Assembly: GCA_043811375.1 (NCBI GenBank)
Contig: JBDRNJ010000011.1
Coordinates: 1 to 57,828 of the forward strand
DNA length: 57,828 bases
DNA from: a bacterium
GTDB lineage: Bacteria; Zixibacteria; MSB-5A5; GN15; FEB-12
Direction: 5' to 3'
Below are positions 2,868 to 57,487 of the stretch, in pieces. The translations under genes and the position numbers were made by a program. Numbering within the stretch: the stretch's first letter is position 1; each line of letters begins with the position of its first letter. The notes under the pieces are model-generated. The model was not told where the DNA came from, did not search any database, and worked only from the letters and a program-made list of their open reading frames with translations.

Positions 2868-5525
2868 CTACTTCAGCAGGAGCATTTTTTTGGATGAACT
2901 TTCCTGGCCAACCCTCAGCCGGTATAGATAAATTCCGGTGGCCACCTGGCGACCGGAACCGTTGGTGGCATCCCAATCCACCTGGTATTGTCCTGGCGTG
3001 AGCTTCTTGTCCAGCAGTGTCCTGACACACTGGCCCAGGATATTAAAGATATCCAGCCTCACTTGCTGTGTCAGCGACCCATCCGAGGCCGCCCCCAGTG
3101 AGAACTCGATAGTGGTAATCGGATTGAAAGGATTCGGGTAATTCTGCTGCAGAGCAAACGAGGTCGGCAGCAACGGCTCAATACCATCTGTTCTGACCGG
3201 CCTGGCGGCAGGAGTGGACAGCAGAGCACGCGTTAATCGCACCCGCGACTGATCACCTGATTCAACTACTGTAAAGGCCCTGACCGGAACACTAAGCAAC
3301 TCGGCTTCACCTTCCTGAATCATGTCTTGCGTCCTTAAGGGACTCTTGAAATAGAGCAGGGCGGTGAACCTCCCCCGGCCATTATCCGTGGAACTCAGCA
3401 CCATGCGATCGACCTCGCTGCTCAGAATCGGATTGCCCAGAATCATCGTGTTCGGGTCGTACCTGATCTCCAATTGCACACCGGCGATCCGGGTGGGAAG
3501 TTCGGACTTGACTACCAGGAACTCCACCATACCGGTCTGCAGATCCGGATACTCAAGTTCCACGGTGGCGAAACCACCCTCGAAGAATTCACCGGCTGCC
3601 GGTGAAAGCGGGATACCAAATATGAGGTTAATTATCCCCACCAGGTCGAACACATTAATAGTGCTGTCAATAATCACGTCTCCGGCTGCAAACTGCCGGG
3701 GAGTAAGAGTATAGTTGCCCAGAATAGTACCCACCACGTTCACCGCGTCGGCCACGTCCACCCGTTTGTCGAGGTTGACATCACCGGCACGATCCACCTG
3801 GATTATTCCCGAGTCGGTCACCAGCGGCAGAGACGGATAATCGGGATCGGGGTTGACAGACTCCCAGCCGTCCTCAAGCAGGACAGTATAGTCGCCCGGT
3901 ATAGCAGTGGTGTCGATTGTCATTACGGCATACAAAATCGCCGTGCTGGCGGTATCGGTAACAATCGGTTCGTTGGCAACACCAAACGCCACCACCTTAA
4001 TACGGCCCGGTGTCTGACCGATGTTGTCATAAATAACATAGTTCTCTGTCCGCGGGGTTGTTATAAAGGAATCAACCTCGAAATAATCATAGTCAAAAAC
4101 GAAATCAAACTGCACACCGTAGACGGTTTGAGAGGTAACCAGGTTAATGGGAAACAACACTGACCGCGCTCCCGGCAGGCCCCCCACCGGCGACTGGCCC
4201 TCGGCCGAGGTGGTGAACAACCGGTCAAACGGTATTTCATTCACCGTGATCGAAAGTGACAACTGCCGTGTACCCCCGACCTTTCCGTCATCCGCCAGGA
4301 AGGTCGCCTGGTAAACTCCCACCTGTGAATAGTCAGGCGTAAAACTGAAATTCCCACTCACCGAACCAACACCTACTACCGGGTTGGTCGGACCGAAAGA
4401 GGCATTGCCCGGCAGCGAAGTGCCCGTCAACGTAATATTATCATTGTCGGCATCTGTTGACGTTACCTGCAGAGCCAGCGTTTGCCCCTGGTCGATCTCA
4501 TAGCTGGTCTGTGTCGGCTGCGTAAACACCGGTCGGCTATTGGACCCGGCCGGGATGACCGTAATGGTCACACTGGCATAGGAGTGGCCGTCGGCGTTTT
4601 CCGCGTCCATAGTGTAGATGGTCGTTGTCGTTGGGCTCACCGACTGCGCCCCGCTGGAGGAGACGGCACCCAAACCGGATATCGTCACTCCCAGCGTCGC
4701 GTTCGTGACCTCCCAGGAAAGCGTAGTGGCATCACCCTCGTCTATTGTCGTCTCGGTTGCCGTAAAGGAATTGATCACCGGCAGGTCGAGTCCCGCCTGG
4801 AAACTGATCACGCCGTTTACCTCCTGCAATCGGTGTAAAGGCGCCCCGGTGGAATCGTAGTACTGCGAGAATATACAGCCTATCGTATCTGGAGGAATCG
4901 AGTCATTCGCCTTCGCTGCCCGGTAGAATGAAATGGTCGTACTGGTGCCTGTCGCAGCCCCGGGGTCAATGTCGAAGGGAATGAAAAAGACAGCGCCGGT
5001 GTCGGCAAGTATGGAATGCTCCGGTTCGAAGAAACCCACTGGATAGACTACTAATTTGACCCGCTTCCGGCCTGCCGGCGGATCGAAATCCACTTCATCC
5101 ACCACCCGCGGGATACCCTTGGCCTGGTTGAACCGACTATTGAAAGTGAACAAGTAGTCGGTAACGATTAACGTATCGATGACGGTGTCCGATGTATCGC
5201 ACACTATAGTATCGCCTTCGGGTCTAACCGAATCGTGACACTCTATAAAAAGAGCCGTATCGATGGTCGAGTCGACCGACAGAAACTGAGGATTGATCAG
5301 GGCGGAGTCGAATTCCAGATAGATCTGCAAACCGGCAATATCATACTCATTTGTGATCGAGATCGGAACTACCACCGTTTCCCCCGGCAGTCCCGAGGTG
5401 CCGACAACGAACGCCGTGTCCGTGCTGAACTTGTCAAACTCGTTACAGGATCCCTGCGCCCGGGAAATCCCGGTTAACATCAAAAACATTACCAGACTAA
5501 TTCCGGCTACTCTCGTCAATCTCAT
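2868..5525 (-). CDS. Secreted scaffoldin-like protein: cohesin, Ig, cadherin-like, cohesin, dockerin, cohesin-like, FlgD-Ig/T9SS type A C-terminal domain
   Basis: ATG 5525 with GGAGG; signal peptide. Cohesin-like motifs GLPGETVVVPISITNEYDIAGLQIYLEFD and VYGVQFDFVFD. Dockerin GDVNLDKRVDVADAV...GDVIIDSTINVFDLV. C-terminus FALQQNYPNPFNPITTI...GIYLYRL...KKMLLLK. Confidence 0.88.
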   Translation of the reverse strand: MRLTRVAGISLVMFLMLTGISRAQGSCNEFDKFSTDTAFVVGTSGLPGETVVVPISITNEYDIAGLQIYLEFDSALINPQFLSVDSTIDTALFIECHDSVRPEGDTIVCDTSDTVIDTLIVTDYLFTFNSRFNQAKGIPRVVDEVDFDPPAGRKRVKLVVYPVGFFEPEHSILADTGAVFFIPFDIDPGAATGTSTTISFYRAAKANDSIPPDTIGCIFSQYYDSTGAPLHRLQEVNGVISFQAGLDLPVINSFTATETTIDEGDATTLSWEVTNATLGVTISGLGAVSSSGAQSVSPTTTTIYTMDAENADGHSYASVTITVIPAGSNSRPVFTQPTQTSYEIDQGQTLALQVTSTDADNDNITLTGTSLPGNASFGPTNPVVGVGSVSGNFSFTPDYSQVGVYQATFLADDGKVGGTRQLSLSITVNEIPFDRLFTTSAEGQSPVGGLPGARSVLFPINLVTSQTVYGVQFDFVFDYDYFEVDSFITTPRTENYVIYDNIGQTPGRIKVVAFGVANEPIVTDTASTAILYAVMTIDTTAIPGDYTVLLEDGWESVNPDPDYPSLPLVTDSGIIQVDRAGDVNLDKRVDVADAVNVVGTILGNYTLTPRQFAAGDVIIDSTINVFDLVGIINLIFGIPLSPAAGEFFEGGFATVELEYPDLQTGMVEFLVVKSELPTRIAGVQLEIRYDPNTMILGNPILSSEVDRMVLSSTDNGRGRFTALLYFKSPLRTQDMIQEGEAELLSVPVRAFTVVESGDQSRVRLTRALLSTPAARPVRTDGIEPLLPTSFALQQNYPNPFNPITTIEFSLGAASDGSLTQQVRLDIFNILGQCVRTLLDKKLTPGQYQVDWDATNGSGRQVATGIYLYRLRVGQESSSKKMLLLK

Positions 5526-6202
5526 CAGAACCTCCAAAAAGGCCGAATGTTATGTTTTATCAACAAACCCCGGCGCTCTAAAAATGGCGCCAGGTCATTA
5601 TTTCACATCAAGTTCCTGATCGAGCCAAGCGGTTGAACAGATATCGTCCCATCTACAAGTGTGGACCGATCAGTATCATAAACTACTCCAAAGTACATCA
5701 ATGAACCAAATCTCTCTTTATAACACATGGTTCTCGACAACTATCTTCCGAGCAATAACCAGACCGGAAGAAAACTTTCCGTTCCTGTTGTTTCGCCTGC
5801 CCCCTCAAAGACAGACTTCAGACAAAACTCCTATAGCCAGAGCCGCCAAGTCCGTTTAGTGGCAAGTGTCGCAATGGCTTACCGGTTGTCACCAACCGCT
5901 GTTAATTCCCTTAACAAAGGTGACGATCAAACCTCCGTGACAAGCCATGATTCGAAGTAACTTTGATATGCATCCGGTTTCCCCACCGAGCTATTGCACC
6001 TGACTGCATTACTGCAAATCTGTGCACAATCGCTTGCTCGGCCGAAACCGCCTCCCCAGACAAAAAAATAACGGCCCCCGCAAAGTTTTGTTGCTGTATT
6101 GCCCTAACTTGTGAGGCCATCTTATTTAATCTCTAAAACCGTATATCTGTCAGTTTCTTCTTTCCTTAACAATTATCCTAAATCTTTCCTCCTTAGTTCT
6201 AA

Positions 6203-6232
6203 AACCCCCGGAGAGGGATTAACCTCTCCGGA
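6203..6232 (-). terminator. Probable intrinsic terminator of the 860-aa gene
   Basis: Stem ccggagagg/cctctccgg just past the stop, followed by a short T-run on the minus strand. Confidence 0.55.
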
Positions 6233-6256
6233 GATAGATGTCAGTCATAGACTGAC

Positions 6257-8839
6257 TTACTTCAGCAGAACCATCTTCTTGGTGGCTGAGAATTCACCGG
6301 CATTCAACTTGTAGAAGTAGATACCGGAGGCCATATCAGAAGCATTCCACTCAACCGAAACCGTACCGGCTTCGGAAGTACCGCTGAACTCAGTGACAAC
6401 CTGACCAGTCACGTTGTAAATGGTCAGATCGTACTCACCGGCAACCGGCAGAGTGAAGCTGACGGTTGTCGTCGGGTTAAACGGGTTAGGATAGTTCTGG
6501 TTCAAAGCATAGTCATGAGGAACCTCAGTCGCCTTGACAACTGAACCCTCATAGCTGCCCAGTTCAATGCTGACTACATCGCCACCCGCACTGATGAACT
6601 CGCCACTGAAGCCGTTACCGGCCAGCGAGTAAACCAGGGCGCGAGTTACGTTCTCGTCGGCATCATAGGCATACTTCATTTCCATCTGGTCAGCCAGCAG
6701 AGTCGGGGTAGCATTGCCCTCGATCACCACCAGGGCAGCGCCCATCTCGGCATCGACAGTAACAACACCCTTGTTAACCACATAAGTGGCTTCCACCGGG
6801 GCCAGCTTGGAATACGGAATAGCGTCGCCAGCAACCACTCTGATCAGGTAGACCAGGTCACCAACCGTCAGCGCCAAACCGTCGGCGTTGCAGTCGGTAG
6901 CCGCGATCTGACCCTGGATGTTGATGTGGAAGGCAGCAAAGCCATAGATGAAGTAGTTGGTGAACACAACCGCGTCAGCGATTTCATGGCCGATGCCATT
7001 GAGGTTGATATCACCGCGAGCGTCGATCGAGTCGGCGCAGACGATGTCAACACCACCGCTGATGAAGTTAATGAACTGGACCGGAGCCGGTTTGTCCACA
7101 CCGCCGCCGATAAGGCACGGCTGCTGGACACCGGTGTAGGTCGGGTAACCAGTGTACATGTCACTGATTTCACCTACCAGGTCAAAGCCATAGACATAGC
7201 GCGAGACAAACAGCGTATCACCAGATACGGAGGAGATAGTGTTGTCGCCACAATCCGTCCAGAACCAGTTAATCGGAGCGAACTGGCACTCGAACAGACG
7301 GTTGTCAGTGACCAGGAAGTCGATGGTGAACAGAGCAAACGGCTTGAGCATCATGAAACAACAGGGATGGAAAGCGCCGTTGTTCAGCTCGGCCATGCCG
7401 ATCACCTTAACGATACCACCCCAGAAGAAGTGGGGCTCGTATGACGGCCAGAACCATGTACGGAAGTTGAAATACTCCCAGCCACAACCCTGGTACATGC
7501 ACAGATCAAACAGAGGACCGGCGATCACGGTCTGGAAGTTCAGAGCCGAACGATCATAGGCCAACAGGAGGTCGAAACCACCCATGTCCTCAGAACCCAA
7601 ATTCAGAGTCACATCGACATACTCGTGCTGTCCCTGAATTGCATAGTGGGTCTTCTCAATCTGGATCTCATACGGCTCGGTGATGAGCACAACGAAATCC
7701 TTCGTGCAGCCACAGGTCGTGTCGCAACCATCGGTCACACCAATGGTGAAGACGTAGGTTTCGCCACCATCGCCGACGGGATAGACACCAGTCGCGGTCT
7801 GGAAGCAAAGCTTACCGGTGGTCGGGCTGATACTGTAAGTACCAACCGGAGCATGCGGCTGAATATCCTGAATGATGAACCAGAACGGGTCACCATCGGG
7901 ATCAACGCCGGTAAAGGTGTGGCAAGCCTCGTTGCCCATACCAACGTCGTTTGACAAACCGCAGTTGCCGTAGGTCGGCGCTTTGTTGGTGGAGATCAGC
8001 GAGACGGTACAGGTAGTTGTCTGACCGGAACCGGTCAGGTCCGTAGCGCCAATCACCAGGGTCGCCGGTGGGTCGCAGAGACCTACCGTACCACTCCATG
8101 TACCGGTGGAGCTGTTGATGCTGCCGGGACCGGAAACAACCGTGTATGTAACGGTACTGCCTTCAGGATCCACGGCGTTGAAGGTATACGTACCCACAGC
8201 CGCGTGATCAATAGACAGATTGGAAACGCAGTTGGTGAATGCCGGCGGGTTGTCCGGCATACTGTAGACAGTGTAGCAGTAGGGGCCACCCCAGCCGGGG
8301 GCATAGTTCATGTTGGGAAAACCCGCTTTGACGGTCGCCCACCACCAGGAACCACCCGGAGGATAGAAGGCCGAGTCGATGCACAGGACTACGTCGCTGT
8401 CATCACAACCGGTCGTTAGCGTGTAAGCATCACCTATGGTGCCATCAGTTATTCCACCCCCTACCGAATAACCACCGTAGCCGATCGTGTCGGCGCCGGT
8501 ACCGGTAATGCTGAAGGGGTTGAAAAAGAAGTTACCACCGGGTAAACGGCCCAACCAACCGAACGCTGCTACGGTGTCCCAGGTGAGGGCATAGAAGGGG
8601 CCGGCATCGGTTCTGCTTACCTCATAACCATTACTGAAAGCACCGACCATGTAACCATCACCAGGGGTGTAAGTGAGTTCGAAGGTGAAGGTGTAGGCTA
8701 CGCCCATTCTAATGCTGTCGGGTCCAAGGCCGGTCGCGGGGGAGATGCCACTCAAGTTGATTTCAGCAGCACCTTGAGCAAGCCCAAACGAAAAAACCAT
8801 CAGAGCTGTTAAAGCAAGAAACATAAAATACCGCTTCAT
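6257..8839 (-). CDS. Secreted protein with Ig/cadherin-like modules, cohesin, dockerin and T9SS type A C-terminal domain
   Basis: AGGAG SD; signal peptide. Cohesin-like QGQHEYVDVTLNLGSEDMGGFDLLLAYD. Dockerin RGDINLNGIGHEIADAV...TDCNADGLALTVGDLVYL. C-terminus LNQNYPNPFNPTTTV...SGIYFYKL...KKMVLLK. Confidence 0.9.
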   Translation of the reverse strand: MKRYFMFLALTALMVFSFGLAQGAAEINLSGISPATGLGPDSIRMGVAYTFTFELTYTPGDGYMVGAFSNGYEVSRTDAGPFYALTWDTVAAFGWLGRLPGGNFFFNPFSITGTGADTIGYGGYSVGGGITDGTIGDAYTLTTGCDDSDVVLCIDSAFYPPGGSWWWATVKAGFPNMNYAPGWGGPYCYTVYSMPDNPPAFTNCVSNLSIDHAAVGTYTFNAVDPEGSTVTYTVVSGPGSINSSTGTWSGTVGLCDPPATLVIGATDLTGSGQTTTCTVSLISTNKAPTYGNCGLSNDVGMGNEACHTFTGVDPDGDPFWFIIQDIQPHAPVGTYSISPTTGKLCFQTATGVYPVGDGGETYVFTIGVTDGCDTTCGCTKDFVVLITEPYEIQIEKTHYAIQGQHEYVDVTLNLGSEDMGGFDLLLAYDRSALNFQTVIAGPLFDLCMYQGCGWEYFNFRTWFWPSYEPHFFWGGIVKVIGMAELNNGAFHPCCFMMLKPFALFTIDFLVTDNRLFECQFAPINWFWTDCGDNTISSVSGDTLFVSRYVYGFDLVGEISDMYTGYPTYTGVQQPCLIGGGVDKPAPVQFINFISGGVDIVCADSIDARGDINLNGIGHEIADAVVFTNYFIYGFAAFHINIQGQIAATDCNADGLALTVGDLVYLIRVVAGDAIPYSKLAPVEATYVVNKGVVTVDAEMGAALVVIEGNATPTLLADQMEMKYAYDADENVTRALVYSLAGNGFSGEFISAGGDVVSIELGSYEGSVVKATEVPHDYALNQNYPNPFNPTTTVSFTLPVAGEYDLTIYNVTGQVVTEFSGTSEAGTVSVEWNASDMASGIYFYKLNAGEFSATKKMVLLK

Positions 8840-9135
8840 TTCTTACTCCTAAATTACTTCGTTTGCAATTAACACATAAACCGTCATATTTATTCTTCCT
8901 TCTTTTCCCCTCGGGTCCCGTCTTGAATCAACCTCGGATGAGAGCCACCAGATCCTGGGCGCATTCGCTACGGGCACAAAAGAATAAACTGACTGTTCTT
9001 TCATTTGAGCGCGTGTCAAAAATACCTCTTTTAAGCGTCCTCCTTCCAACTAATTGGGTTGATAGGTTGTGTCGCGTCACAAGGACACGACAGTTCTCTT
9101 TATTTTGGTTTCTTTTTTCTCAGACTCAAGTCACC

Positions 9136-10230
9136 TCAGCATCCGCATGGTGCCGAACCACCCTGGAACAGAAAGGCCACCAGGTAAGTCAGGTCACCGA
9201 CATTGGGCATCGGGTCAACGTCGCAATCCATATCTGCCGCCGCCACCGGTACCGGTGCTGCTCCGCCCTGGAACAGGTAAGCCACCAGGAACGTCAGGTC
9301 GCCCACATCAACACTCCAGGTCCCATCCACATCGCCGCAGAGATACGACTCCTGTACCGTCAGGGAGCCGTTTTCCAGCGTCACCACATTGGTATCCACG
9401 TAGACAACCTCTTCCATCACCTCTTCGGTAGAATCACACCCCCCCGGCGGCGGCAACGATACCCGTATCCAATTCAGGCAGACATCGCCCGCCCAGGCAG
9501 TACATATCCAGCAGTTGGTGTCGGGGACGGTGTCGGTTTTGAGGCCTATCGAAGACCCGTCCGGGCGAGAAAAGTTGTAGTGGTCAAGGAAGTTATAAAC
9601 AATCATCATCTGGGACGTACGATCCTCAATAGAATCAGGAATCGTAAAAACATCAGCCAGAATCTTTACCAGCGTACCGCCCATCTGCGGCGCAATCCCG
9701 GCCACAAAAGGCGTATCCGCAGTGTTGGCTATTCCGGCAATATTGAGGTCGATCCCGTAACCGGATATCGAACGCGCCTGCATGTACTGCCAACCCGATG
9801 TCAGGCACCCGGTAGTGTCGAAGTTACCGATAACAATGTCGAACGTATCAACCTGATACCAATCCCAGAGGGTGTCTCCCATGGTATCTATCTCCGGCAC
9901 CATATGGGAATCTACGCAGTCAGGGCCAACCCATTCCAGACACTCCCACCAGGTGGTGTCAATGAAAATGCCGCTGTCGGTCTGGAATTCCATGATGTCG
10001 TCCCGGTCAAGCTGTATCCACAGATTAAAACCGGCTACTGTGTCCTGGTAGTTATTCATATAAATAGGTATCGCTGTGTTCTGGGCACCTGATGAAGTCG
10101 TGGTGTCAAACACTTTCACCCAAAGTACCGGCGCTTGCGCTTGTGTCGTCGGACCGGCAAACAAAATCACCAATCCAGCCGCCACAATGATCGAAAAAGC
10201 ACCTCGGAGAGACTTGCTTCGAAAGGACAT
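9136..10230 (-). CDS. Secreted cohesin-like plus C-terminal dockerin protein (adaptor-like)
   Basis: ATG 10230 with GGAGG; signal peptide. Cohesin-like AIPIYMNNYQDTVAGFNLWIQLD. Terminal CGDVDGTWSVDVGDLTFLVAYLFQGG...NVGDLTYLVAFLFQGGSAPCGC. Confidence 0.88.
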   Translation of the reverse strand: MSFRSKSLRGAFSIIVAAGLVILFAGPTTQAQAPVLWVKVFDTTTSSGAQNTAIPIYMNNYQDTVAGFNLWIQLDRDDIMEFQTDSGIFIDTTWWECLEWVGPDCVDSHMVPEIDTMGDTLWDWYQVDTFDIVIGNFDTTGCLTSGWQYMQARSISGYGIDLNIAGIANTADTPFVAGIAPQMGGTLVKILADVFTIPDSIEDRTSQMMIVYNFLDHYNFSRPDGSSIGLKTDTVPDTNCWICTAWAGDVCLNWIRVSLPPPGGCDSTEEVMEEVVYVDTNVVTLENGSLTVQESYLCGDVDGTWSVDVGDLTFLVAYLFQGGAAPVPVAAADMDCDVDPMPNVGDLTYLVAFLFQGGSAPCGC

Positions 10231-10567
10231 TACTTCCTCCTTGATCTTGGATCGTTCTTGTTGTTTCCGTCGTTCCTTAGCCAAGATTCAATAAGAAGTT
10301 CCCTGAAAACGGCTCACCTTCATCACACTCAGAGACTGAACTCTCGTCAGGTTCTCAGGACCGCTGGGCTGACCCTTATCGGGTCAAACCACACTCAGCC
10401 CTTTTGTAACTTAACCGACTTGTACCCTTCGAGAAGACAGTTCAGTCAACTCAAAACAGAAGTACCTTGTAGTTCATATTCGAAAGATTACCGCTCGCTC
10501 ATGGAGCTGACAATCTCCAAGCTGTTGTTAGCCTGATGGTGATTCACTCACCTATCATCCGAGCTCT

Positions 10568-16699: not shown

Positions 16700-18865
16700 T
16701 CAATAACAGGGTGGCCCAGCGTTGCCAAACAGGAAATTCATGTAGTAAACGACATCGGCAATGTTGATGATACCGTCGCAGTTGGCATCGGCGCGACCGG
16801 CGCCTCCGTCCGGCGGCTCCCCACCATAAGCCACGAACTGTATCAGTAGATTCAAATCAACCACGTTTGTCTCGTCATCCTGGGTGTAATCGCCGGCGAC
16901 ATAACTATCTGAGCAATTGTATTTCAGCAGCACCGTTCCAAATCCGGCAAGTCCGCCGACATCATGCCCACCGGCAATAAAGAAGTACAGGCTGTCTTCA
17001 GCGAGACCGGTCGGTATCCAGGAGTACGACCAGCCGTCAGCCCCGACAAAATCCGCTCCAAGAAGTTGGCGGGAAACATCCCAGGGCCAACCCAGTATTG
17101 ACAATAGCAGGTCAACCCGTTGCCAGGTACCGTTGTAGAGCAGTTCGCCGGTGCTCAATCCGGCACGCATCGGCATAGTCACCATGCTGCCGGTACGCGG
17201 ATCGGACACCCGCACCATGTAGCTGCCGTCCGGCTGCTCCCAGCCGGTAAAACCGTCGACCGCCAGCCAGATTCCGGGGGTCCCTCCCAGCGCCAGAACT
17301 ACCACTCGCTGCTCATCCTCGACCCACCGGCGCAACAGGAAATAGTCGGGATTGCGGTGGAAATCGAACAGGAGCTGACTGCCGTGTGCGGCAGCATACC
17401 CCTGCAATGCCTGCAGTAGGTTCTCATCGTAGGTTCCCAGATTCTCCCGCATGCGGGCTCGTGTTGCCAGCCGTTCTGCGACTGTGTCCACCGATAAAAT
17501 ATCGTAACCCTCTCTCATTACCTGCTCAAAACCACGGTCGAACCAGACCCTGACAGCTATGGCCGCTGCCACCGGTCCGCTGTAGTAATCACCGAACTCA
17601 CCGCCCGCGACAGGATTGCCGTCGTCGGGATTACCGTTATCATCGCCCAGCGTGAACTGGTTCAGTGTCACCATGCCGGTCGAGTAACCGGTCCGGGCGT
17701 CATGCCGGGAAATATCTACGTAGTTTAGATCCTCATCGCTGCTGCTCATCAACAACTCCAGCGGCGAACAGAAATCCGATCCGTTGGATGGAGAAGTAAT
17801 GGTCGGCACCGGTGGTGTCGGTTCCAGGTAGACTACGGCACTGTCGGATGAACTGCGGCCGAGCGTATCGAAAGCGGTTGCGCGAACAGTATAGACACCT
17901 TCCGACAATGACGAAAAATCCCAATCGAGACTGAATCCATCTCCGACATCGGAGTTGTTCAAACCATCCCGTAACGGTCGATAACCATCATAGTCGCGAC
18001 CGGCCTCGGTGTAAGCGCCCCCACTGGAATATTCGAATGAAACGTAGTCGATTATGTCCGAGCCCGAGGTGTCCCACACCCAAAAACCGGCTGACCCCAA
18101 CAGTGTATCATTTGACGTCGGCGCCAGAATTGTCAGGGCCGGCTCCGGCTGCTCGCCGCCACTGCCGCCGGTGATACCCACTGCGTAAAGCAACATCCGG
18201 CCCGGAAACGTGAAGTATTCGTTCTGATCACTGTTGAGGTCGATGAAGCCAATGGTGGAATCCCAGATGTTGTATGACGTGCACAGCACCGGGAAGGAAT
18301 CAGTGATAACGGCCGCACCGATCTCCGGAGCCAGGGAATTGCCGATATAAATTCCGGCAAAGAACGGCCCGGTGACGGCATAGGGTGTATCCAGCGGTAT
18401 CCATATTTCGTAAAGACCCTGAGCCGGTACCATTGTTTGCCACTCCGAGGAGATCGCCAGCAGTACACCGGGAACCGGACAGCCGGGAGTTGAGTTATCA
18501 GCGGCCTCAATATCAGCCGACACGTACAGCGGCGTTGCCGTCTCAAAATACATCTGAATGGCAATTTCCGTAACCATGAACGGATACGGGGCCGTACAGG
18601 TGGCAGCCGGGTCCAGGTATTCCTTGTACAGTTCAGCGCCGAAAACCCAGCCGTCGATTTTCCATACCGCACCGCTGTCGTGGCGCACCAGGCAAGTGTC
18701 AGCCGTAGCCAGAGACGGCCTGATCCGGATTTCTCCCGACAGTCCATCACCGATTCTCACCACTCGCGCCTCTTTCTTCCCGGCGGCGTCGATCGGCGAC
18801 GCCAACAGCATCATCATCAGACACCCGGCCATAGCCAGCAGATGCGGCATTGATATTCTCCTCAT
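16700..18865 (-). CDS. Secreted multidomain protein: beta-sandwich, Ig-like, C39/papain-like (probably inactive), C-terminal dockerin
   Basis: Signal peptide; Ig-like LSEGVYTVRATAFD; YYSGPVAAAIAV and GIWLAVDG resemble C39 Cys and His motifs; terminal GDYTQDDETNVVDL...DANCDGIINIADVVYYMNFLFGNAGPPCY. Start uncertain (18850-18874). Confidence 0.82.
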   Translation of the reverse strand: MRRISMPHLLAMAGCLMMMLLASPIDAAGKKEARVVRIGDGLSGEIRIRPSLATADTCLVRHDSGAVWKIDGWVFGAELYKEYLDPAATCTAPYPFMVTEIAIQMYFETATPLYVSADIEAADNSTPGCPVPGVLLAISSEWQTMVPAQGLYEIWIPLDTPYAVTGPFFAGIYIGNSLAPEIGAAVITDSFPVLCTSYNIWDSTIGFIDLNSDQNEYFTFPGRMLLYAVGITGGSGGEQPEPALTILAPTSNDTLLGSAGFWVWDTSGSDIIDYVSFEYSSGGAYTEAGRDYDGYRPLRDGLNNSDVGDGFSLDWDFSSLSEGVYTVRATAFDTLGRSSSDSAVVYLEPTPPVPTITSPSNGSDFCSPLELLMSSSDEDLNYVDISRHDARTGYSTGMVTLNQFTLGDDNGNPDDGNPVAGGEFGDYYSGPVAAAIAVRVWFDRGFEQVMREGYDILSVDTVAERLATRARMRENLGTYDENLLQALQGYAAAHGSQLLFDFHRNPDYFLLRRWVEDEQRVVVLALGGTPGIWLAVDGFTGWEQPDGSYMVRVSDPRTGSMVTMPMRAGLSTGELLYNGTWQRVDLLLSILGWPWDVSRQLLGADFVGADGWSYSWIPTGLAEDSLYFFIAGGHDVGGLAGFGTVLLKYNCSDSYVAGDYTQDDETNVVDLNLLIQFVAYGGEPPDGGAGRADANCDGIINIADVVYYMNFLFGNAGPPCY

Positions 18866-18892
18866 TCTGTTCAATTTTTGCCTCTCTCTTGA

Positions 18893-22820: not shown

Positions 22821-25800
22821 TTAGAAGCACCAGGCTCCATCAGGACACGGTCCGCCACCGAAGTAATAGTCGATCAGACGGTTGACATCGAGCATGTCGA
22901 TGGTACCATCAATAACGACATCACCTAAGTGCATGAACGGGATCGGTCCCGGAGCGCCGGTATTGACAAAGTTAGCGAGATAAATGATATCACAGAGGTT
23001 ACCCACCGTGCCATCATTATTCACGTCACCACGCTCCCAGCCGCAGAACTTGTTGACCATGTGAGCCATACCGGCATACTCGGCACCATCGGAGGCATCA
23101 GCCAGACCGAACAGCGCAAAGTGTGCGATAGCGACCTCATAGTCACCATACGGTTCGAAGTCGTGAGAAGCGTATGTCATCATCGCTTCTTCGTCACCAT
23201 TGTGGATGTCAACGTTAATCACACCTTCCGAGAAATGACCCACACCATGAGACATATGGATGTAGCAGAAATCCCAGAAGATTCCCCAGCCCCAGAAACC
23301 GTGGCCGGGTGTTCCGGAAACACCCCACTCATCCCAGATGTTCAGGATCGGCACATTGTCGGCGGCAGTCTGACCAACAGAGATACAGCCGAACGGGATC
23401 TTAACCTGACCCCAGGCCTGATCGTTACCAGGTGTGTTGTGACTCCAGGTGGTAGAGATGTCGCGATCGATACCGAGCTCGTCGCCGCCGTTATCGCAGT
23501 CGAGAATCTCGCCGAGATACCAGCCGGTAACCGAGTCGTTATTCCTGTTATGGAACTCCATGATCTCAATAGTCACGTTGTCCAGTTCAGGAACGTCGCA
23601 AACACCAACCACCCGGCTCTCAACGTAGAGACCCATGGTGGAGTCATTGTCGAACCCGACACCGAAGTTATCCCAGGTTGCGTTGAATATCTGGACGGAA
23701 TCCAGGAAGCTCTTGCAAACCATATCACCGACAACAGGTGTGTAGGTAATACCGTCGGAGGTGATACCACCAACGCCACCCATGCAACCCAGCAGCGTAA
23801 CGCCGGACATGAGGTGTGGTTTACATTCGCCGTCACACCAGTTGGGATCCGGCTGCATCGACACAAAGGCGTCAGCTTCGCCACCACCGGTGGTCCAATC
23901 CTGCGTGTGTACGGCCATACGATGAGTACTGGTCGCATACACATAGGCGGCCTGGTAGTAGGAAGCGGCGTCGCCATCGATGTCAAAGCAGTGCGCATCC
24001 CAGTCACCGGTACCTATACGGCCGGTGTTGGTAACCCACTGGTAATCGGTGCAGCCCATGCCGAACCACAGTGTGGTGGTGTCGATCAAGCAACCACCAA
24101 CCAGACAGACATAGATACAGGGATCCATGGTGACGTTGTTGATGTAGAAGTCAGGATCGTTGGTCACCATCTGCATGTAGAAGCACTGCGGGCCACGGGA
24201 GATCTGGAGTTGATCAACCGTCAGGTCGAGATCGGCCGTGTCACCCGGGGCTATCGTCAACCCCACCGCGGGGAAGTCGATACTAACCACGAAAGGCGGC
24301 CAGGCCGTGGCAGCACTGTTGCTGCGCTCTTTGGTGAGATCCATTTCATCCCTGGAGATGATCAGGTTCTCATCAAGAACATTCTCGCTCGGACGGAGAT
24401 ACTTCGACAGATAGGCGTCACGGGCCAGATTGTCGGCGATCCGCGAAGCCTTCTCCATGAAGTCAACCCCTACCGTGTTCACCGAAGCAAACAGTGTCGG
24501 ACTCTGGATGTCACAGGCACAGGCCGCGGCATCCTGGTCGGCACAGATCGACAGGAATTGCAGGTCAGTACAACCGGTGTTGACAAAGACATCCGGTATC
24601 GAGACCGGCAGCAACGGGTTGGAACCAAACTCAACCGCAGTAGTCGGGTTGTAGGTCTGGATTTCCAGACGCGCCCGGTCACCCTGCTTGGTGAGGTCAA
24701 TCAGATTGCCCCAGTAGCAGGTGGCCAGCACGTGGACTTCGTCCGCCACGTCATGAACAACGGCTACGCCCTGGCCCATGTCGTACGGCCAGCCTATGCC
24801 ATTGTCAATCTTACGACGGAATGTCTCGGTCATATCGGAAGTTCTGATGAACTGCAGGAAGCCGTCATCATCGACAGCAACGATGAAGTCAGGTTCCGGC
24901 TCAGGTTCACAAGTCGCAGCGGCATCGTGAGCGTAGTAGCGTCCGCCACCGGGGCCGTCGCACACACCCTCAATGGCGCCACTGTTCTTGTTGAACTTGA
25001 TCATGTTACCACCGGCCGGCGGGGTGCCCCAGCGGGTCGTGGTCGGCAGGTAAACATGGCTGATATCCATGATCGGCGTCTGATAGTACGCGCGGTTGGA
25101 AAGCACCGCGTAGTTCAGACTGCCGTCACTCGCGTTAATGCTGTAGAACAGACCATCGGTCGGATGGTCGGCCTCGGCACGCGAGGGGGTATAGATTTTG
25201 CCATTGTCGTACATGATACCACCGGCGAAACCTTCGTTGGCTATGGGGTAACCGTTGGTATGAGTAAAGACGTTAACACCCTGGAGGCCGCCCGCTGGAG
25301 GTGGGCCGGACAGTTGCCAGTTGATAACGCCTGTGGCGGCGTCTATCGAGTAGACATCACCCTCAGGACCACCGGTACCAATGTAGGTGCAGAAGAACAG
25401 GTCGGTGCCGTCGGTAGTACCGGAAACATTCACCGAGTACGTCAGGGGTACGGGGTTATTAGTGCCCCAGCCGAAGTACAGCGAACCGTTAGCAGCCTCG
25501 ACGGCAACCACGTTACCGTCATCAGTGCCCCAGTAGAGCACATCCATACCACCGATATTAAGAATGACGGTACGACCCCAGCGGTTCAGTCCGAACAGGC
25601 CGGCCGTACCTACGGTGGAAATGTCGCGGCTCCAGATGAGGGCGCCGGTGTACAGATCGTAGGCAACGAATGACTGCTGGTCACCACCGCCAACAAACAA
25701 CACCGGATCAGTAATACCAGCAATCATGGCTACCGTCGGCGTGCAGCGCAGTGCGCCACCCAGCGGGAAGCCCGAAAGGGTGTACACGATGCTGGCCGTC

Positions 25801-34925: not shown

Positions 34926-34928
34926 GGT

Positions 34929-46009: not shown

Positions 46010-46066
46010 GCAAGCTTTCCAAATATATGTTATAAACTACAAATATCGTTTTTCCTGTCGCCGATG

Positions 46067-48559: not shown

Positions 48560-48580
48560 TTCTTTAGTTCCTCGTATCTA

Positions 48581-49004: not shown

Positions 49005-49151
49005 TTCAGATGACGGTTGGAAATACCGATTACTGCAGGATGGTGGTCGGAGACCATTGCGACGATCCTACCGTCATACTGTCGTCAAGTTACGATCGGT
49101 CATGAATTCACTATGTCGGTCTGCGATTCGAGATTTGCCCGATTGCTGCAA

Positions 49152-50567
49152 ATGAAAAAGCTGATCCTGACAGCCCTGTTGATAACGATTGTCGCTTCCG
49201 TTGCGATAGCTGAAGATTACGACCGCTCGGCCGGTAACGTTGTCTACGTGGTTCACGCTGTCGATACCGAATCGGATTCCCTGGATGAGTTTTCCTTCAA
49301 CCAGGAGTTGTTACTGGCGAACTATAATTCGGGGGGGATCATCTCCACCGTCTTTGATTCGACCTGGCGCAACGCCCATGTCGACAGTTATGGCCGACCG
49401 ACCCGAATTACCTGGTTCCTGATGACTCACGAGGCGCACTGCCGGAGCACTCAAGGATGCAACGCCATTCCGGAAGTGATGTTGGGTAATTTTGCCGATC
49501 AGATCGACCGGTGGGGCGATGAAATCGGCTGGCACTACCACCACTCCGATTGGGTGAACAACGAGTGGCAGAGTCTGAATACTTTCGACGGCACCATCTA
49601 TCGCCAGCAACCCGATACCGAACTGGCGGTCGATCAGTTGGCCATGTGGGTGCTGGAAAACGGCTTTTTCCCGGAAAGTTTCCGCGCCGGCTGGACATGG
49701 GAAAATACTGATTTTTCCAACTGGCTGGAACGACTGATTGTTTACGACTTCAGCAACTACTGGTCCAACGTTCCCGCCGGTAAGAACCAGTGGGATCCTT
49801 ATCACCCTTCAGCCGAAGATTATCGCGCTGAGGGTACTATGCGGCGCTGGATAGCCAAGTGCAAACCCGGGGGATTAACGCAAGCAGACGTCGACGATGC
49901 TTTCCAACTGGCGCAGACGGAAGGCCGGGCAGTGCTGAGCTTCTACAGCCATAGCTACTTCGCTCCCACCATTCACTCCGACCAGGGAGTGGTTGAAGGC
50001 TGGTTGCAAAATGCCAGCCAACTCTATGGAGTACCCTTCCGTTATGTCGGCGCCAAAGAAGCGATGCAACTCTGGGCGGGTGAAACCGACATCATACCAC
50101 CGGAAATAACCACCTTGATTATTAACCGCATCCTGCACGTTGAGACCAACGAGGACTTACAGGGGCCGCCGTTTCTTGCCCTCAGGCATGCTGACGGCAG
50201 TCACAGCGGACATTTTATGTCGCCGACCGGACAATACCAGTGGGATTACATTCTCAGTGACTCAACGGTGACCATTGCGGCAGTAGCGCTAACCGACCTG
50301 GCCGGCAATCAGAATACCTCCGAGGAACTGACCTACTTTGATATGTGTACTGTTCCCAATCCCGAGTGCGGTGACGTGGACGGCAATGGCTGGAGCAAAC
50401 TTCCCGATGACCTCGTCTTCCTGGTGGCCTACCTGTTCCAGGGCGGACATGCGCCCTGTGACCTCAACACCGCCGACATGGACGGTTCCGGCGCGATCAA
50501 TGTCGGCGACCTGATGCGCCTGGTCGGCTACCTATTCATCGGCGGCCCGCCACCCGCCTGCCCGTAG
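49152..50567 (+). CDS. Secreted polysaccharide-deacetylase (CE4/NodB)-like protein with C-terminal dockerin
   Basis: Signal MKKLILTALLITIVASVAIA; VHAVDTE, DEIGWHYHH, SFRAGW, FYSH; terminal CGDVDGNG...DMDGSGAINVGDLMRLVGYLFIGGPPPACP. Confidence 0.82.
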   Translation: MKKLILTALLITIVASVAIAEDYDRSAGNVVYVVHAVDTESDSLDEFSFNQELLLANYNSGGIISTVFDSTWRNAHVDSYGRPTRITWFLMTHEAHCRSTQGCNAIPEVMLGNFADQIDRWGDEIGWHYHHSDWVNNEWQSLNTFDGTIYRQQPDTELAVDQLAMWVLENGFFPESFRAGWTWENTDFSNWLERLIVYDFSNYWSNVPAGKNQWDPYHPSAEDYRAEGTMRRWIAKCKPGGLTQADVDDAFQLAQTEGRAVLSFYSHSYFAPTIHSDQGVVEGWLQNASQLYGVPFRYVGAKEAMQLWAGETDIIPPEITTLIINRILHVETNEDLQGPPFLALRHADGSHSGHFMSPTGQYQWDYILSDSTVTIAAVALTDLAGNQNTSEELTYFDMCTVPNPECGDVDGNGWSKLPDDLVFLVAYLFQGGHAPCDLNTADMDGSGAINVGDLMRLVGYLFIGGPPPACP

Positions 50568-53161: not shown

Positions 53162-54442
53162 ATGGCCAAAACACTGAAAGAAACATTGGCCGACCTGATC
53201 CCGAAACTCCGCGAGGAGCGTGTTTCCCTCATGAAGGGACACGGCGACGTCAAGATTTCCGAAGTCACGGTCGCCCAGGCAATCGGCGGAATGCGCGGTG
53301 TCAAGGGGATGGTCTGTGATACCTCGGTGGTCGAACCGGACCAGGGTTTGATCATCCGTGGATATCCACTATTGAAACTGGTCGATAAGATTCCGGAAGA
53401 AATCTTCTGGCTGCTGATCACCGGCAAGCTGCCCACCGCCGACGAGCTCCAACTGTTCCAGAAGGAACTGAAGACTTACGGCGAAGTCCCCAAGTATGTC
53501 TGGCGCGTTCTCAAGGCAATGCCCAAGACGTCGCACCCGATGGCGATGCTGGACACTGCTATCCTGACCATGGAAAACGAATCAGCCTTCCGCAAGCGTT
53601 ACTCCGAAGGCATGACCAGGATGGAGTACTGGGAGCCGACCCTGGAAGACGCCATGCGCGTTATGGGCACCATCCATACTATCGCGGCCGGTGTCTACCG
53701 CATCAGGTACAAGAAAGGTGATCTGATCGAGCCTTCGAAGAAACTCGACTGGGCCGCAGATTTCGCCAGAATGCTCGGCCTGCCCTCAAAGAAGGGACAA
53801 ACGGCTGAGATGATGCGGCTCTACCTGACGCTGCACTGCGACCACGAGGGCGGCAATGTTTCGGCCAACACCTGCCACACTGTCGGCAGTGCCTTGTCCG
53901 ATGCTTTCTACGCCGTCTCCGCCGGCCTGAACGGTCTGGCCGGTCCCCTGCACGGTCTGGCCAACCAGGAGTGCCTGGGCTGGGTGCTGCAGACCATCGA
54001 GAAATTCGAAGGTGCTCCCAGCAAGGAACAGATTCGCGATTACGCCTGGGAAACTCTCAACAGCGGCAAGGTCATTCCGGGCTACGGTCACGCCGTGTTG
54101 CGTGTCACCGACCCGCGGTTTGTGGCTTTCCGCAACTTCGGCAAGAAGTACCTCACCAAGAATCCGGTCTTCCAGACAGTCGACCGCGTTTACGAAGTAG
54201 TACCGGAGGTGCTCAAAGAGCACGGCAAGGCCAAGAACCCGTGGCCGAATGTCGACGCCGGTTCCGGCGCCATCCTGTACAACTTCGGTCTCAAGGAGTT
54301 CGAGTACTACACGGTGTTGTTCTCGGTATCGCGTTCGATGGGTATGCTGTCACAGTTGGTGCTCAACCGCGCCCTGGGCACAGCCATCACCCGTCCCAAG
54401 TCGGTCAGCACCGAGTGGTTGAACAACCAGGTCAAATCGTAA
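53162..54442 (+). CDS. gltA: Citrate (Si)-synthase, eukaryote-like type
   Basis: GGMRGVKGMVCDTS, HCDHEGGNVSA, GLAGPLHGLANQE, PGYGHAVLRVTDPR, NPWPNVDA. Confidence 0.96.
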   Translation: MAKTLKETLADLIPKLREERVSLMKGHGDVKISEVTVAQAIGGMRGVKGMVCDTSVVEPDQGLIIRGYPLLKLVDKIPEEIFWLLITGKLPTADELQLFQKELKTYGEVPKYVWRVLKAMPKTSHPMAMLDTAILTMENESAFRKRYSEGMTRMEYWEPTLEDAMRVMGTIHTIAAGVYRIRYKKGDLIEPSKKLDWAADFARMLGLPSKKGQTAEMMRLYLTLHCDHEGGNVSANTCHTVGSALSDAFYAVSAGLNGLAGPLHGLANQECLGWVLQTIEKFEGAPSKEQIRDYAWETLNSGKVIPGYGHAVLRVTDPRFVAFRNFGKKYLTKNPVFQTVDRVYEVVPEVLKEHGKAKNPWPNVDAGSGAILYNFGLKEFEYYTVLFSVSRSMGMLSQLVLNRALGTAITRPKSVSTEWLNNQVKS

Positions 54443-54622: not shown

Positions 54623-57487
54623 CTAACACACCGGCGATGGACCACCCTGAAAAAGATAGGTCACAAGGTAGGTTAAATCACCGACATCGATAGAGCCCGA
54701 CCCATCAACGTCGCAGGCCTCCAACACCGGCGGTACCGGTCCGCTCTGGAAAAGGTAGGCCACAAGATAGGTAAGGTCGCCGACATCCAGTGCCCCCCCG
54801 CCATCAACGTCCCCACAGATCCAGGTCTGACAAAACATCGAGACTACGCGGACATTATCGATATTCCAACCGCAGAAACGCAAGCCGCCGTCGGTGGGTC
54901 CCATTGTCCATCGCAGATATACCATCGGCTGGTTGTCGGCGTAGTCGGAAATATCGTACTCAATCTCCATCCACTCCAAATCGCCGATAATGGCCGGATT
55001 CTGCCACAGGGTGGTCCAATCGGTTCCGTTAGTACTAATCGAAACGGAGGCCTTATCGTAGACCGGTTGTTCGACTCCGAGCCAGCGGCAGAACCGAAGG
55101 CGCGTCTCAGTCGATCCGGAGCAGTCGATGGCCGAACTAGTGGCGTGCTGAGCTGACAGGCTGTTCTCGTAATCGCCCGCCAGGTTGTATCCGAGCACGC
55201 TGGATCCGAGACAGCCTTCGGTGGGATCCGGCACCGGGTAGTTCTGCTCCTGTCCGCCCTGACCCAGCGGTACACCTATATCCCAGAGACCCGTCATGGT
55301 CCAGCCGGCACTATCTTCCAATGAGTCCTCAAGGACCACCACCTCTTCGCTGACAGGTATTGCCGTCAACGGCTCGGTCGGCAGAGGGGCGTAACAGCGT
55401 CCGCCCCCTGATTCATTGAAACTCACGAAGTACTCGACAGTCTGGCCGCAATCCAACGGAGGCAGGACCGCCTGGTACTGCTCCTGTCGGAGTGATACCA
55501 GGGGTACAGCCGTAGAGTCGGAGCCATCGATCCGGTAGTGCAGCAGTCCGCTCCCGGTCAGCGGTGCGCCGTTGCCGATCCCTGTGACAGTAACATCGAA
55601 CGTCGTTTCAGTCTTTGGCTCGACTTCCGTGGGAGTACCATTGGGGAACATGATGGCCAGGCTGCGGACAGGCTTTATCCTCACTGCCGGGTCAGCGAAC
55701 AGGTTGGTTTCATAGTAGGTCCAGCGAATCGCGGGCTCGTTGATCCAACTGGCCAGATCGAAGCGGGCATCGAGCATGGCCATACCCAACTCCGGGCAGC
55801 CCTCGTCGGCACTGTTGATGGCATCCCAGAACTCGCGATTGAAAATGTGAACCGGATGCAGAGTAGAGCGCGAGCCCAGCCCGATTCTGGAGTTAGCCAC
55901 ACAGGCGAATCCCCCGGTAGACAGCTTGGTCGTGACATACTCGGCCCAGCATTCGTAGAAATCGAAGCGCCCCGCGTTGCAGCCCTCGGCATAGAGGAAA
56001 CAATAATCGGTATTGGTAAATTGCGATTTGACCATACCGGTGTCGGTACGCATGGCGTAGCCGATGTCGCTGTGACCGAGGTGATCGACGATATGCACAC
56101 CCGCGTTGATGCGAGCGATAAGCTCCGACGGCGGCCAGTAATTGTTCGGCAGGCTGGTCAGGTCATATAGTTTCTCGATGTTATACTGGTCGGCGGCGAA
56201 TCCGTAGGTGGTGAAGCCATGAGCGTCAGAACCGTTCACCATCTCGTCCATGGCATAACCACCGTATTCACCCAGCCCGCCAAACCCGAGGTCCTCACCC
56301 ACCAACAGGACTTTGGACAGGTAAGCATCGTTGCTCTCGAGGTAAGCGATGGTCTTGTTGATCAGATTGGCAACTTCAGAACTGTCTCCGGCTGACACGC
56401 GACCGAGCCCGATTTCCGGCAACAGGTCGATTTCTCCGCCACCCTCACCGTCGCCAGGTTCACCCCACCGGCTGTCCCCATCGTAGTTGAAGGTACCATC
56501 CAGGCAGGCAAAGTAGAAATCCCCGGGCATGTCATACGCAGTAATCGACCCGGAGGACAGAGTAACATCGACGTAGAGATCCAGGGCTGGAATAATGTCA
56601 TCGTCACCCCCGAGCAGGACCAGCCGGATACCGTTGGTGAGGTATTCATTGCGAATGTAATCACGAACCGAATGCGGATCGTTAGCGCCTATCTGGTCCA
56701 GCGTATGGATCTCGGTCATAATGCCAGTGCTGTCGTGATAGTTCTTCAACGGCTGAAAAGCCGATGCCAGCGTCGAGGACGTGATGATCAACATGTCGTA
56801 GCTGCCCGTGCCAACCTTGCCGGCCGATCCGTAGCTGTTGATCAGGGAAGCATTGTCCACTCTTGCAGATAAAGCCTCAGCGTCGGTCGCAATCCCCCGC
56901 ACCGCCGGAAGGACGGACGTTGACATTGTAGTGACCGTCAGTTCTATCTTGGAGTAGTAGTGCAATTCCCCCGTGGAGGGGATGTACTCCACCGGAACCA
57001 GGTCAATCAGCGCGATACGATAACCATGGAACACCTGCTCCGAAACCAGCCTACTTGTCTGGTCGGGCAACGGCTGGTTTGTGGCGTAGACCTCCTCATT
57101 GACATAGAGCGGAGGTACCTGGTCTGGCGGCGTCGACATGGGGAATGGCTGTTCGACCGGAGACAGGCGCAGACCACCGGCGACCAGATACTTCTGAGTA
57201 CGATCCACCGCCACCGACTTGAGGCGGTGACCATAGGGTAACAGCACACGAGCCCGCTTGGTGGGCAGGGCCGGGCCGCCGACAGCTCCGGAAGGGGGAC
57301 AGCCCGGCATGGTCACTTCTGAGAACTGCTGTCCGTCAATTTCGACCGTTTGCACCAAAGGGGCAGCAAAGTCGTAGGTGATTTCGATTTGCTCAGCGAA
57401 CGATTGAGCTGCGGTTGCCAGCATAAAAACAAGCAACACACATATCAGAGTGCCAGTGGTGCCCATGAATGAACGGCGTGGTGTCAT
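54623..57487 (-). CDS. Gingipain-like C25 cysteine peptidase with propeptide, beta-sandwich and C-terminal dockerin
   Basis: Signal peptide; propeptide GGPALP...VLLP; YDMLIIT, VLLGGD, GDFYFACLDG, LGRV; catalytic HLGH and EGCNAG; NLFADP; terminal CGDVDGGGALDVGDLTYLVAYLF...FQGGPSPVC. Confidence 0.95.
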   Translation of the reverse strand: MTPRRSFMGTTGTLICVLLVFMLATAAQSFAEQIEITYDFAAPLVQTVEIDGQQFSEVTMPGCPPSGAVGGPALPTKRARVLLPYGHRLKSVAVDRTQKYLVAGGLRLSPVEQPFPMSTPPDQVPPLYVNEEVYATNQPLPDQTSRLVSEQVFHGYRIALIDLVPVEYIPSTGELHYYSKIELTVTTMSTSVLPAVRGIATDAEALSARVDNASLINSYGSAGKVGTGSYDMLIITSSTLASAFQPLKNYHDSTGIMTEIHTLDQIGANDPHSVRDYIRNEYLTNGIRLVLLGGDDDIIPALDLYVDVTLSSGSITAYDMPGDFYFACLDGTFNYDGDSRWGEPGDGEGGGEIDLLPEIGLGRVSAGDSSEVANLINKTIAYLESNDAYLSKVLLVGEDLGFGGLGEYGGYAMDEMVNGSDAHGFTTYGFAADQYNIEKLYDLTSLPNNYWPPSELIARINAGVHIVDHLGHSDIGYAMRTDTGMVKSQFTNTDYCFLYAEGCNAGRFDFYECWAEYVTTKLSTGGFACVANSRIGLGSRSTLHPVHIFNREFWDAINSADEGCPELGMAMLDARFDLASWINEPAIRWTYYETNLFADPAVRIKPVRSLAIMFPNGTPTEVEPKTETTFDVTVTGIGNGAPLTGSGLLHYRIDGSDSTAVPLVSLRQEQYQAVLPPLDCGQTVEYFVSFNESGGGRCYAPLPTEPLTAIPVSEEVVVLEDSLEDSAGWTMTGLWDIGVPLGQGGQEQNYPVPDPTEGCLGSSVLGYNLAGDYENSLSAQHATSSAIDCSGSTETRLRFCRWLGVEQPVYDKASVSISTNGTDWTTLWQNPAIIGDLEWMEIEYDISDYADNQPMVYLRWTMGPTDGGLRFCGWNIDNVRVVSMFCQTWICGDVDGGGALDVGDLTYLVAYLFQSGPVPPVLEACDVDGSGSIDVGDLTYLVTYLFQGGPSPVC

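Follow-up and report, generated by a model that had tools for sequence, protein, structure and literature searches.

A scaffold of cohesins held by a C-terminal domain (CTD) has been proposed in silico for Candidatus Stygibacter (Cloacimonadota), whose CTD-anchored scaffoldin is accompanied by dockerin-tagged C25 and S8 peptidases and glycoside hydrolases (PMC8542988, in which a 'planctosome' is also cited). Nothing closer than this proposal was found in the literature searched, and its supplements may list more. We describe a related arrangement on contig JBDRNJ010000011.1 (assembly GCA_043811375.1) of a bacterium of the Zixibacteria, whose whole length of 57,828 nucleotides is called the window. 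It encodes cohesin scaffolds with type IX secretion system (T9SS) tails at their C-termini and proteins that end in dockerins and have no such tail, and the genome probably specifies a cell-surface docking system in which a few tailed scaffolds receive about 100 tail-less dockerin proteins with a genome-specific recognition helix. The Stygibacter proposal, made from sequence only, shares with this system a CTD-bearing cohesin scaffold and signal-peptide enzymes with C-terminal dockerins, C25 and S8 peptidases among them. It has one scaffoldin of 3755 residues with tandem cohesins and carbohydrate-binding modules (CBM2/3), and GH18 and GH57 cargo (PMC8542988), whereas here many small scaffolds and adaptors carry one to three cohesins, no CBM or glycoside hydrolase family was detected, the cargo proteins number about 100, the code is genome-specific, some dockerins are private and the gene cluster is conserved.

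Three other known groups of proteins share parts of this design. T9SS type A substrates anchored by PorU have the same type A tails, and SprA, PorV and PorU are present here as they are there (PMC11611037, PMC9251779); in Porphyromonas gingivalis PorU cleaves the tails and the substrate is linked to anionic lipopolysaccharide (A-LPS; PMC11611037), and T9SS export requires a folded CTD (PMC9251779). The clostridial and ruminococcal cellulosomes (types I, II and III; PDB 4uyp, 4wkz, 6kge, 2ccl) agree with this system in their folds, have dockerins with two symmetric repeats and a recognition helix that is specific to the lineage, fall into several specificity classes and use one-cohesin-one-dockerin adaptors (PMC12484212). 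In contrast to those cellulosomes, the host here is diderm, so that the outer membrane must be crossed, the anchors are T9SS tails, the dockerins are Cys-flanked and no cellulase family occurs among the 95 dockerin proteins scanned. Non-cellulosomal cohesins and dockerins are reportedly the subject of work by Peer in 2009. Such modules, those of Archaeoglobus (2xdh), C. perfringens (2vo8) and the 'planctosome' among them, likewise serve outside cellulose breakdown, in part for peptidases, whereas the present modules occur in about 120 proteins per genome, phylum-wide, and are coupled to the T9SS. No paper linking the Zixibacteria with dockerins or the T9SS was found in a search that left most subscription papers outside, and one paper mentions Zixibacteria and cellulosome, each term once.

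An initial annotation, made from the letters of the window alone, had described a non-cellulosomal cohesin-dockerin system of seven genes tied to the T9SS. The folds and the T9SS components bear out its nature; its extent has to be revised, as the system is genome-wide and comprises some 120 proteins.

Cohesin scaffolds with T9SS tails

Scaffolds A and B (Table 1) each gave an AlphaFold model with a mean pLDDT of 86.9. Three domains of A match cohesins by structure (Z 17.5, root-mean-square deviation (rmsd) 2.6, 162 aligned; Z 17.3, rmsd 1.9, 132 aligned; Z 12.3, rmsd 2.4, 123 aligned), as does the base domain of B (Z 16.1, rmsd 2.1, 143 aligned), and for these four domains the alternative that they might model as non-cohesin immunoglobulin (Ig) folds did not materialise. 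By structure the tail of A resembles PorU's C-terminal domain (Z 10.8), the tails of A and B score 29.8 and 54.1 bits as type A tails against TIGR04183 (cut-off 23), and both proteins have hydrophobic N-termini. The initial annotation was thus right about two tailed cohesin proteins and counted too few cohesins in them, there being four cohesin-fold domains and a fifth, predicted one at the tip of B. When the scaffolds were compared whole by Foldseek, the matches were multi-Ig chains only, and this approach was dropped.

The tip domain of B belongs to a divergent class, of which the genome has 23 copies. It is not listed among the solved-structure matches of the whole B model, and hhalign gives no link to other cohesins; the Atlas model of a paralogue (pLDDT 0.62) gave TM scores of 0.58-0.67, and eight of the ten rows of that comparison were cohesin-bearing clusters. 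Judged from these models, the case for a cohesin fold in the tip is good but not final. Among the 81 sampled genomes to which our profile counts of dockerins, cohesin classes, A, C, SprA and secretins refer, the tip profile matched 47, the base-cohesin class of B occurs in 79 and A is present as a single copy in 71. The idea that the tip is order-specific was rejected, since tip motifs also occur in B proteins of other orders when 45 orthologues of B are aligned. In contig C39 of this genome (G000:C39:40222-42772) two overlapping open reading frames (ORFs) each hold a tip-class cohesin and are probably one frameshifted gene.

Adaptor C was seen from the start as a protein of cohesin plus dockerin only, and this holds: its cohesin is homologous to the first cohesin of A (hhalign probability 94-95%) and its dockerin carries the cargo code described below (code identity 0.91/0.91).

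Table 1. Coordinates of the scaffolds, adaptor, stalk gene and dockerin proteins in the window
Feature	Position	Strand	Composition
Scaffold A	2868..5537	-	cohesin, two Ig, cohesin, private dockerin, third cohesin-fold domain, T9SS type A tail
A, first cohesin	4794-5429	-	
A, second cohesin	3795-4226	-	
A, dockerin	3594-3794	-	duplicated loop-helix module
A, third cohesin-fold domain	3168-3572	-	
A, tail	2871-3152	-	
Scaffold B	6257..8839	-	tip cohesin (predicted), two Ig, base cohesin, scaffold-class dockerin, small beta domain, T9SS type A tail
B, tip cohesin (predicted)	8264-8767	-	
B, base cohesin	7028-7678	-	
B, dockerin	6809-7024	-	duplicated loop-helix module
B, tail	6260-6505	-	
Adaptor C	9136..10284	-	one cohesin, cargo-code dockerin, no T9SS tail
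C, cohesin	9349-10134	-	
C, dockerin	9139-9345	-	duplicated loop-helix module
Gene D, 5' part	3..2849	-	949 aa to contig edge; stalk of ~94-aa Ig-like repeats; Pfam Big_9/Cadherin_5
C39-like protein	16700..18874	-	single copy; DUF7451, Ig, C39-like region, private dockerin
C39-like protein, dockerin	16706-16903	-	duplicated loop-helix module
PQQ protein	22821..27893	-	1690 aa; PQQ-type propeller (PF13360), private dockerin
PQQ protein, dockerin	22827-23039	-	duplicated loop-helix module
Deacetylase-like cargo	49017..50567	+	polysaccharide-deacetylase-like fold, cargo-code dockerin
Deacetylase-like cargo, dockerin	50361-50561	+	duplicated loop-helix module
C25 cargo	54623..57487	-	gingipain-type C25, propeptide, MAM-like domain, cargo-code dockerin, no T9SS tail
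C25 cargo, dockerin	54626-54823	-	duplicated loop-helix module

A genome-wide set of dockerin proteins

All seven dockerin-like modules claimed for the window are present at the places given for them, each with a duplicated calcium loop-helix repeat. Pfam Dockerin_1 (PF00404) matches four of the seven proteins at E<=0.01 and exceeds its gathering score in only one. The module of B superposes on the type I dockerin 2ccl_B (Z 10.3, rmsd 1.6, 62 aligned), a fold comparison made with B, the cargo modules not having been folded alone. A profile seeded with the seven modules and run to convergence, so that its matches on those seven are circular, finds 126 domains in 119 ORFs of the genome, where Pfam alone gives 60 matches. 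It finds none in reversed proteins, and an origin of the motif by chance or low complexity was rejected on this control. A profile built from 77 cargo dockerins matched 14 solved sequences at E<=0.01, including cellulosomal dockerin chains.

The great majority of these ORFs (102/119) end in the dockerin and have no T9SS tail, in contrast to T9SS type A substrates; tails occur in 45 ORFs genome-wide, and nine ORFs have both. Among tail-less dockerin proteins of at least 250 aa away from contig edges, 79 of 83 have an N-terminal hydrophobic stretch compared with 6 of 83 internal controls, a crude test made with no signal-peptide predictor. Close paralogues swap one end for the other: C83:64488 ends in a dockerin and C88:11970 in a tail, at an identity of 69% over 732 aa; for C24:98180 in the same comparison the identity is 66% over 752 aa. 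Cohesin-type domains number 47 in 39 ORFs, of which 12 are tailed, 16 end in a dockerin, seven have neither and four lie at contig edges.

Pfam annotation covered 95 dockerin ORFs; of the other 24, 17 are shorter than 250 aa. Peptidase domains were counted by hand in 21 of the 95 (S8, C25, C1, C10, M1, M4, M14, M28 and trypsin-like), and most of the others are propellers, beta-helices, Ig stalks or of no known type, so that the term 'protease/esterase-bearing' used in the initial annotation fits the smaller part of the set. No glycoside hydrolase family was found in the 95, which extends what had been noted for the window, and no CBM on A or B; beta-helices in five of the scanned proteins and BNR repeats in five make action on carbohydrates still possible.

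Dockerins were matched in 80 of the 81 genomes. The one without a match (G066; family f13; 94% complete) has SprA and gave no match for tip cohesin, base cohesin, A or C. At locus L003:17115-19283 one protein combines a Peptidase_S74 chaperone domain with three internal dockerins, all divergent.

A recognition helix shared within each genome

Around 94 terminal dockerins of this genome share the helix VGDLTYLVAYL in both repeats, and the two repeats are symmetric (0.83). Other helices are found in three related genomes, with identities over the four genomes of 0.63-0.80 within and 0.30-0.48 between genomes; the related sets were the top 30 loci per genome by the profile of this genome, and the motif was readable in 28, 8 and 27 of them. 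For two unrelated and unlinked genes the agreement in code is 0.76 when both come from one genome and 0.40 when they come from different ones; in 28 of the 39 genomes used, no partner from elsewhere matches better than the genome's own (a sequence was lacking for six of 45). The 12-residue helix occurs in 77 exact copies, encoded by 73 DNA versions with a codon identity of 0.44 against 0.37 expected, which points to selection rather than recent copying; on this ground the view that the shared code stems from recent duplication was rejected. As read from their sequences, the cargo proteins have species-specific recognition residues in common. Type I cellulosomal dockerins are likewise symmetric and dual-binding, and their recognition is generally species-specific (PMC12484212).

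A second group of dockerins, which we call private, lies off this general code and is conserved across genomes: those of A, B, D, the C39-like protein and the PQQ protein. The four window proteins reported to end in a dockerin and to lack a sorting domain do so, and two of them are of this private kind, so that the four probably have no one common socket.

The family labels of these four held to different degrees. The C25 assignment is solid (PF01364 at 167 bits, PF08126 also present; code identity 1.0/0.91), and residues 468 and 500 hold what we take to be the catalytic His and Cys motifs. The PQQ propeller match is weak, yet above cut-off; the protein occurs in 25 of 31 genomes and its dockerin is conserved in 14 orthologues. 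The label of CE4 deacetylase, from a predicted fold (Atlas TM 0.68 to a PF01522 cluster, with no Pfam or PDB match), is a matter of fold; its dockerin has a code identity of 0.64/0.73. The C39-like region matches no family. The protein is found in 30 of 31 genomes and its dockerin (code identity 0.36/0.27) is conserved across orthologues. At the presumed C39 catalytic positions, which we assigned from the motif of the family, the window protein has Ser, three of 14 orthologues have Cys and none has His; an active C39 protease was rejected on these missing residues, and the domain is probably, by its sequence, not an active protease.

Covariation between the code and each cohesin was measured over 45 genomes with overall divergence removed (partial r). 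Over all pairs the code tracks the B tip best, with 0.32-0.40 in five subsets, the exception being the comparison within the family, where C's own cohesin reaches 0.37-0.44. The equally divergent first cohesin of A gives 0-0.11 and the B base cohesin a weaker signal of 0.12-0.28. When the code is taken from a gene that is not linked, the B tip again scores highest over all pairs, at 0.23. On a fair reading of these sequences, the N-terminal cohesins are the candidate cargo sockets. Prediction of a complex of the B tip, the C25 dockerin and two calcium ions gave ipSAE values of 0.11 and 0.16 (mark 0.32); with the controls not folded, this is evidence neither way.

A conserved gene cluster and weak signs of expression

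The order C-B-(A')-A-D, in which A' is a second scaffold, is conserved across the phylum. Of 54 genomes that have both C and A, 46 carry C on A's strand, upstream of it and no more than 13 kb away (hand count), C, B and A occur together in 45 of 51 loci, and A' was scored in 39 of the 51. These counts are not unbiased, as 38 of the 40 last-fetched loci were picked for C-A linkage, and in a few distant genomes a divergent B was scored as A'. BLAST found no A' in this genome, which has a gap of 719 bases (5538-6256) where most relatives carry it. Named homologues of A and B are mostly from Zixibacteria or GN15. The related-locus search was dominated by the T9SS tail pattern and held one full-length orthologous locus (Zixiibacteriota) among 78 loci. 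Scans of the cluster for promoters and terminators stayed at chance level, and Rfam gave no matches in it.

Gene D was absent from the initial annotation. A giant Ig-repeat gene follows A in all 11 related loci that were read further; its array ends in a dockerin in 10 of the 11, is a single ORF of 2185-5949 aa in five, and bears a T9SS tail in none. The Ig-like repeat of D recurs at the end of contig C74, with no exact overlap with the start of the window, and D probably continues there in two genes, a first one whose terminal module is of neither the dockerin nor the tail kind and, after it, a dockerin-ended Ig stalk of 2222 aa. Where D genes are split, the first half ends in a C-terminal module of about 340 aa with PKD and fn3-like parts and then a duplicated motif (G000:C74:121388-122878 and L158:17842-18873), 56-66% identical in four relatives.

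By codon adaptation B ranks 42 of 1608 long ORFs, with four genes as the reference. In one RNA library, 7348-7991 and most of 8020-9018 are covered by contigs from a relative of about 85-90% identity, which also reach short stretches at 10271-10525; the DNA run of the same sample touches all 30 bins, so DNA carry-over in the RNA library is possible, and the absence of RNA contigs over 24 of 30 bins in run X20 proves nothing. Codon adaptation and RNA contigs together are weak evidence of expression.

Export components of the genome

The genome encodes SprA (above cut-off in 81/81 genomes), PorU at 653 bits beside a PorV-family gene, and PorV-family genes at eight places in all, which gives the T9SS connection of the initial annotation the three components SprA, PorU and PorV. 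At locus L049:10241-13108 a PorV-family protein of 955 aa with a long insert immediately follows porU and is itself followed by a tailed protein that is M6-like. Two secretins are present. One belongs to a PilMNOPQ-type cluster; the other is accompanied by PilB/GspE and PilC/GspF homologues of its own, in a second cluster that adjoins a C25-dockerin gene. Both score better as PilQ than as GspD, and no secretin exceeds the GspD cut-off in the 81 genomes.

Genome, samples and other features of the window

The window is the whole of contig C11 of a 3.56-Mb genome, 95% complete, from a phylum placed near the FCB group. No sequencing run contained more than 0.14 of the sequence words, and so no habitat is claimed. 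The window also holds an RNase P class A RNA at 45644-46008 (-; 282 bits), the opposite-strand ORF 45705-46085 being probably its shadow; tRNA-Val and tRNA-Met at 48486-48654; at 34019-36433 (-) exosortase EpsH with EpsI, next to a UbiA-family decaprenyl-phosphate phosphoribosyltransferase-like gene, a second protein-sorting system; and at 53162-54442 (+) a citrate synthase that scores 526 and 500 bits with eukaryote-type models and 175 or less with the common bacterial ones.

Discussion

The cell-surface docking system that we think likely would operate as follows. Sec would export all parts, and the T9SS would export and anchor the tailed scaffolds, PorU cutting the tail and linking the protein to lipopolysaccharide as in established T9SS biology. 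Cargo dockerins would then dock to cohesins in a calcium-dependent manner and in two tiers: variable N-terminal tip cohesins would read the cargo code, while conserved base cohesins and the private dockerins would link the framework, which cohesin-plus-dockerin adaptors such as C would branch or extend. The system would serve to display proteases, adhesins and binding proteins and not to break down cellulose. The layout is of the cellulosome type, with non-catalytic multi-cohesin scaffolds and many dockerin proteins; 'cellulosome' as a label was rejected, there being no cellulase or hemicellulase family on the scanned dockerin proteins and no CBM on A or B.

Several observations weigh against this reading or parts of it. 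The cargo is placed at the surface by argument, and no cultured strain or localisation data came up in the literature searched. Of the GldK/L/M/N motor and ring of the T9SS, GldK and GldM were not found, in a search that covered these two in a genome 95% complete and had weak controls (the GldM control matched nowhere). Secretins occur in all 81 genomes, this genome having a second PilB/GspE-type cluster. Tip-class cohesins are present on two likely lipoproteins, C10:48832-49497 with one and C88:423-1556 with two, as read by eye. Covariation does not settle the cargo partner: on 22 independent pairs the B tip is not significant (r 0.33, p 0.07) and C's cohesin reaches 0.52, and with the code from the unlinked gene, on 19 independent pairs, the B tip (r 0.21, p 0.20) is exceeded by C's cohesin (0.45) and by the first cohesin of A (0.40), the base cohesins being near zero. 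The strands of the presumed binding face are no richer in signal than other strands (0.23 compared with 0.19).

The route by which tail-less cargo would cross the outer membrane is a separate matter. That it rides through SprA on a tailed cohesin carrier has, in our judgement, a chance a little short of even, and no report of passenger export by the T9SS was found in the available parts of the literature searched. Passage through a secretin machine is a possibility to be taken seriously, if a doubtful one, and some other route is unlikely. Dockerin-ended, tail-less Ig stalks of 2185-5949 aa would be hard to fit in the periplasm. We offer with some scepticism a more far-reaching proposal, that a second, non-covalent sorting code lies atop the T9SS: tail-less proteins, including stalks of up to 5900 residues, would bind the cohesins of tailed carriers in the periplasm through a genome-specific dockerin, pass SprA as passengers and stay on the surface, and the code would drift between species like a self-recognition lock that keeps secreted proteases and adhesins private.

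The likely lipoproteins with cohesins make periplasmic tethering possible and are candidate membrane anchors or periplasmic carriers. Tail-less dockerin proteins would then stay in the periplasm on lipoprotein cohesins, the tailed scaffolds being a separate surface structure, and this would agree with the failure of any secretin to reach the GspD cut-off and with the predicted periplasmic location of tail-less Cytophaga enzymes (PMC11611037). The swapping of dockerin for tail between close paralogues, the presence of dockerins at the ends of multi-thousand-residue Ig stalks and adhesin-type domains, and the ratio of 12 tailed cohesin ORFs to about two likely lipoproteins make it improbable as a replacement for surface docking. 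The same swaps, together with a dockerin that is strictly C-terminal and nearly exclusive with the tail, the eight PorV-family genes and the secretin cluster beside a C25-dockerin gene, would also suit a dockerin that serves mainly to mark proteins for export: a cohesin carrier, a PorV paralogue or a secretin machine would read it for a short time, and the cargo would then be released to the medium. Such a transient label would not call for 47 cohesin-type domains, many of them on stalked and tailed proteins, nor for private dockerins conserved across genomes, which imply stable and specific partners, and we regard it as very improbable. A structural lattice or matrix resembling a surface layer, in which cohesin-dockerin proteins polymerise head to tail and enzymes are incidental, fits the 16 cohesin ORFs that end in dockerins, the high codon adaptation of B and the RNA contigs of a relative that cover it in one library, and has the least chance of all. 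Against it stand the single code that selection maintains in some 94 diverse cargo proteins and the peptidase domains of 21 of the 95 scanned dockerin proteins. As the base tier of the favoured docking system, a lattice may well exist.

If the docking system is as we describe it, an uncultured phylum organises most of its predicted surface proteome with the parts of a cellulosome and no cellulases, and the question is posed by what path some 100 proteins that lack a T9SS tail get past the outer membrane. If it is true, passenger export would change the view that each T9SS substrate needs a tail of its own. Annotated cohesins miss most of the sockets, Pfam finding seven matches in this genome where 47 domains are counted here. 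The dozens of genome-specific codes, carried by Cys-flanked dockerins, make up a natural library of candidate orthogonal cohesin-dockerin pairs for protein engineering.

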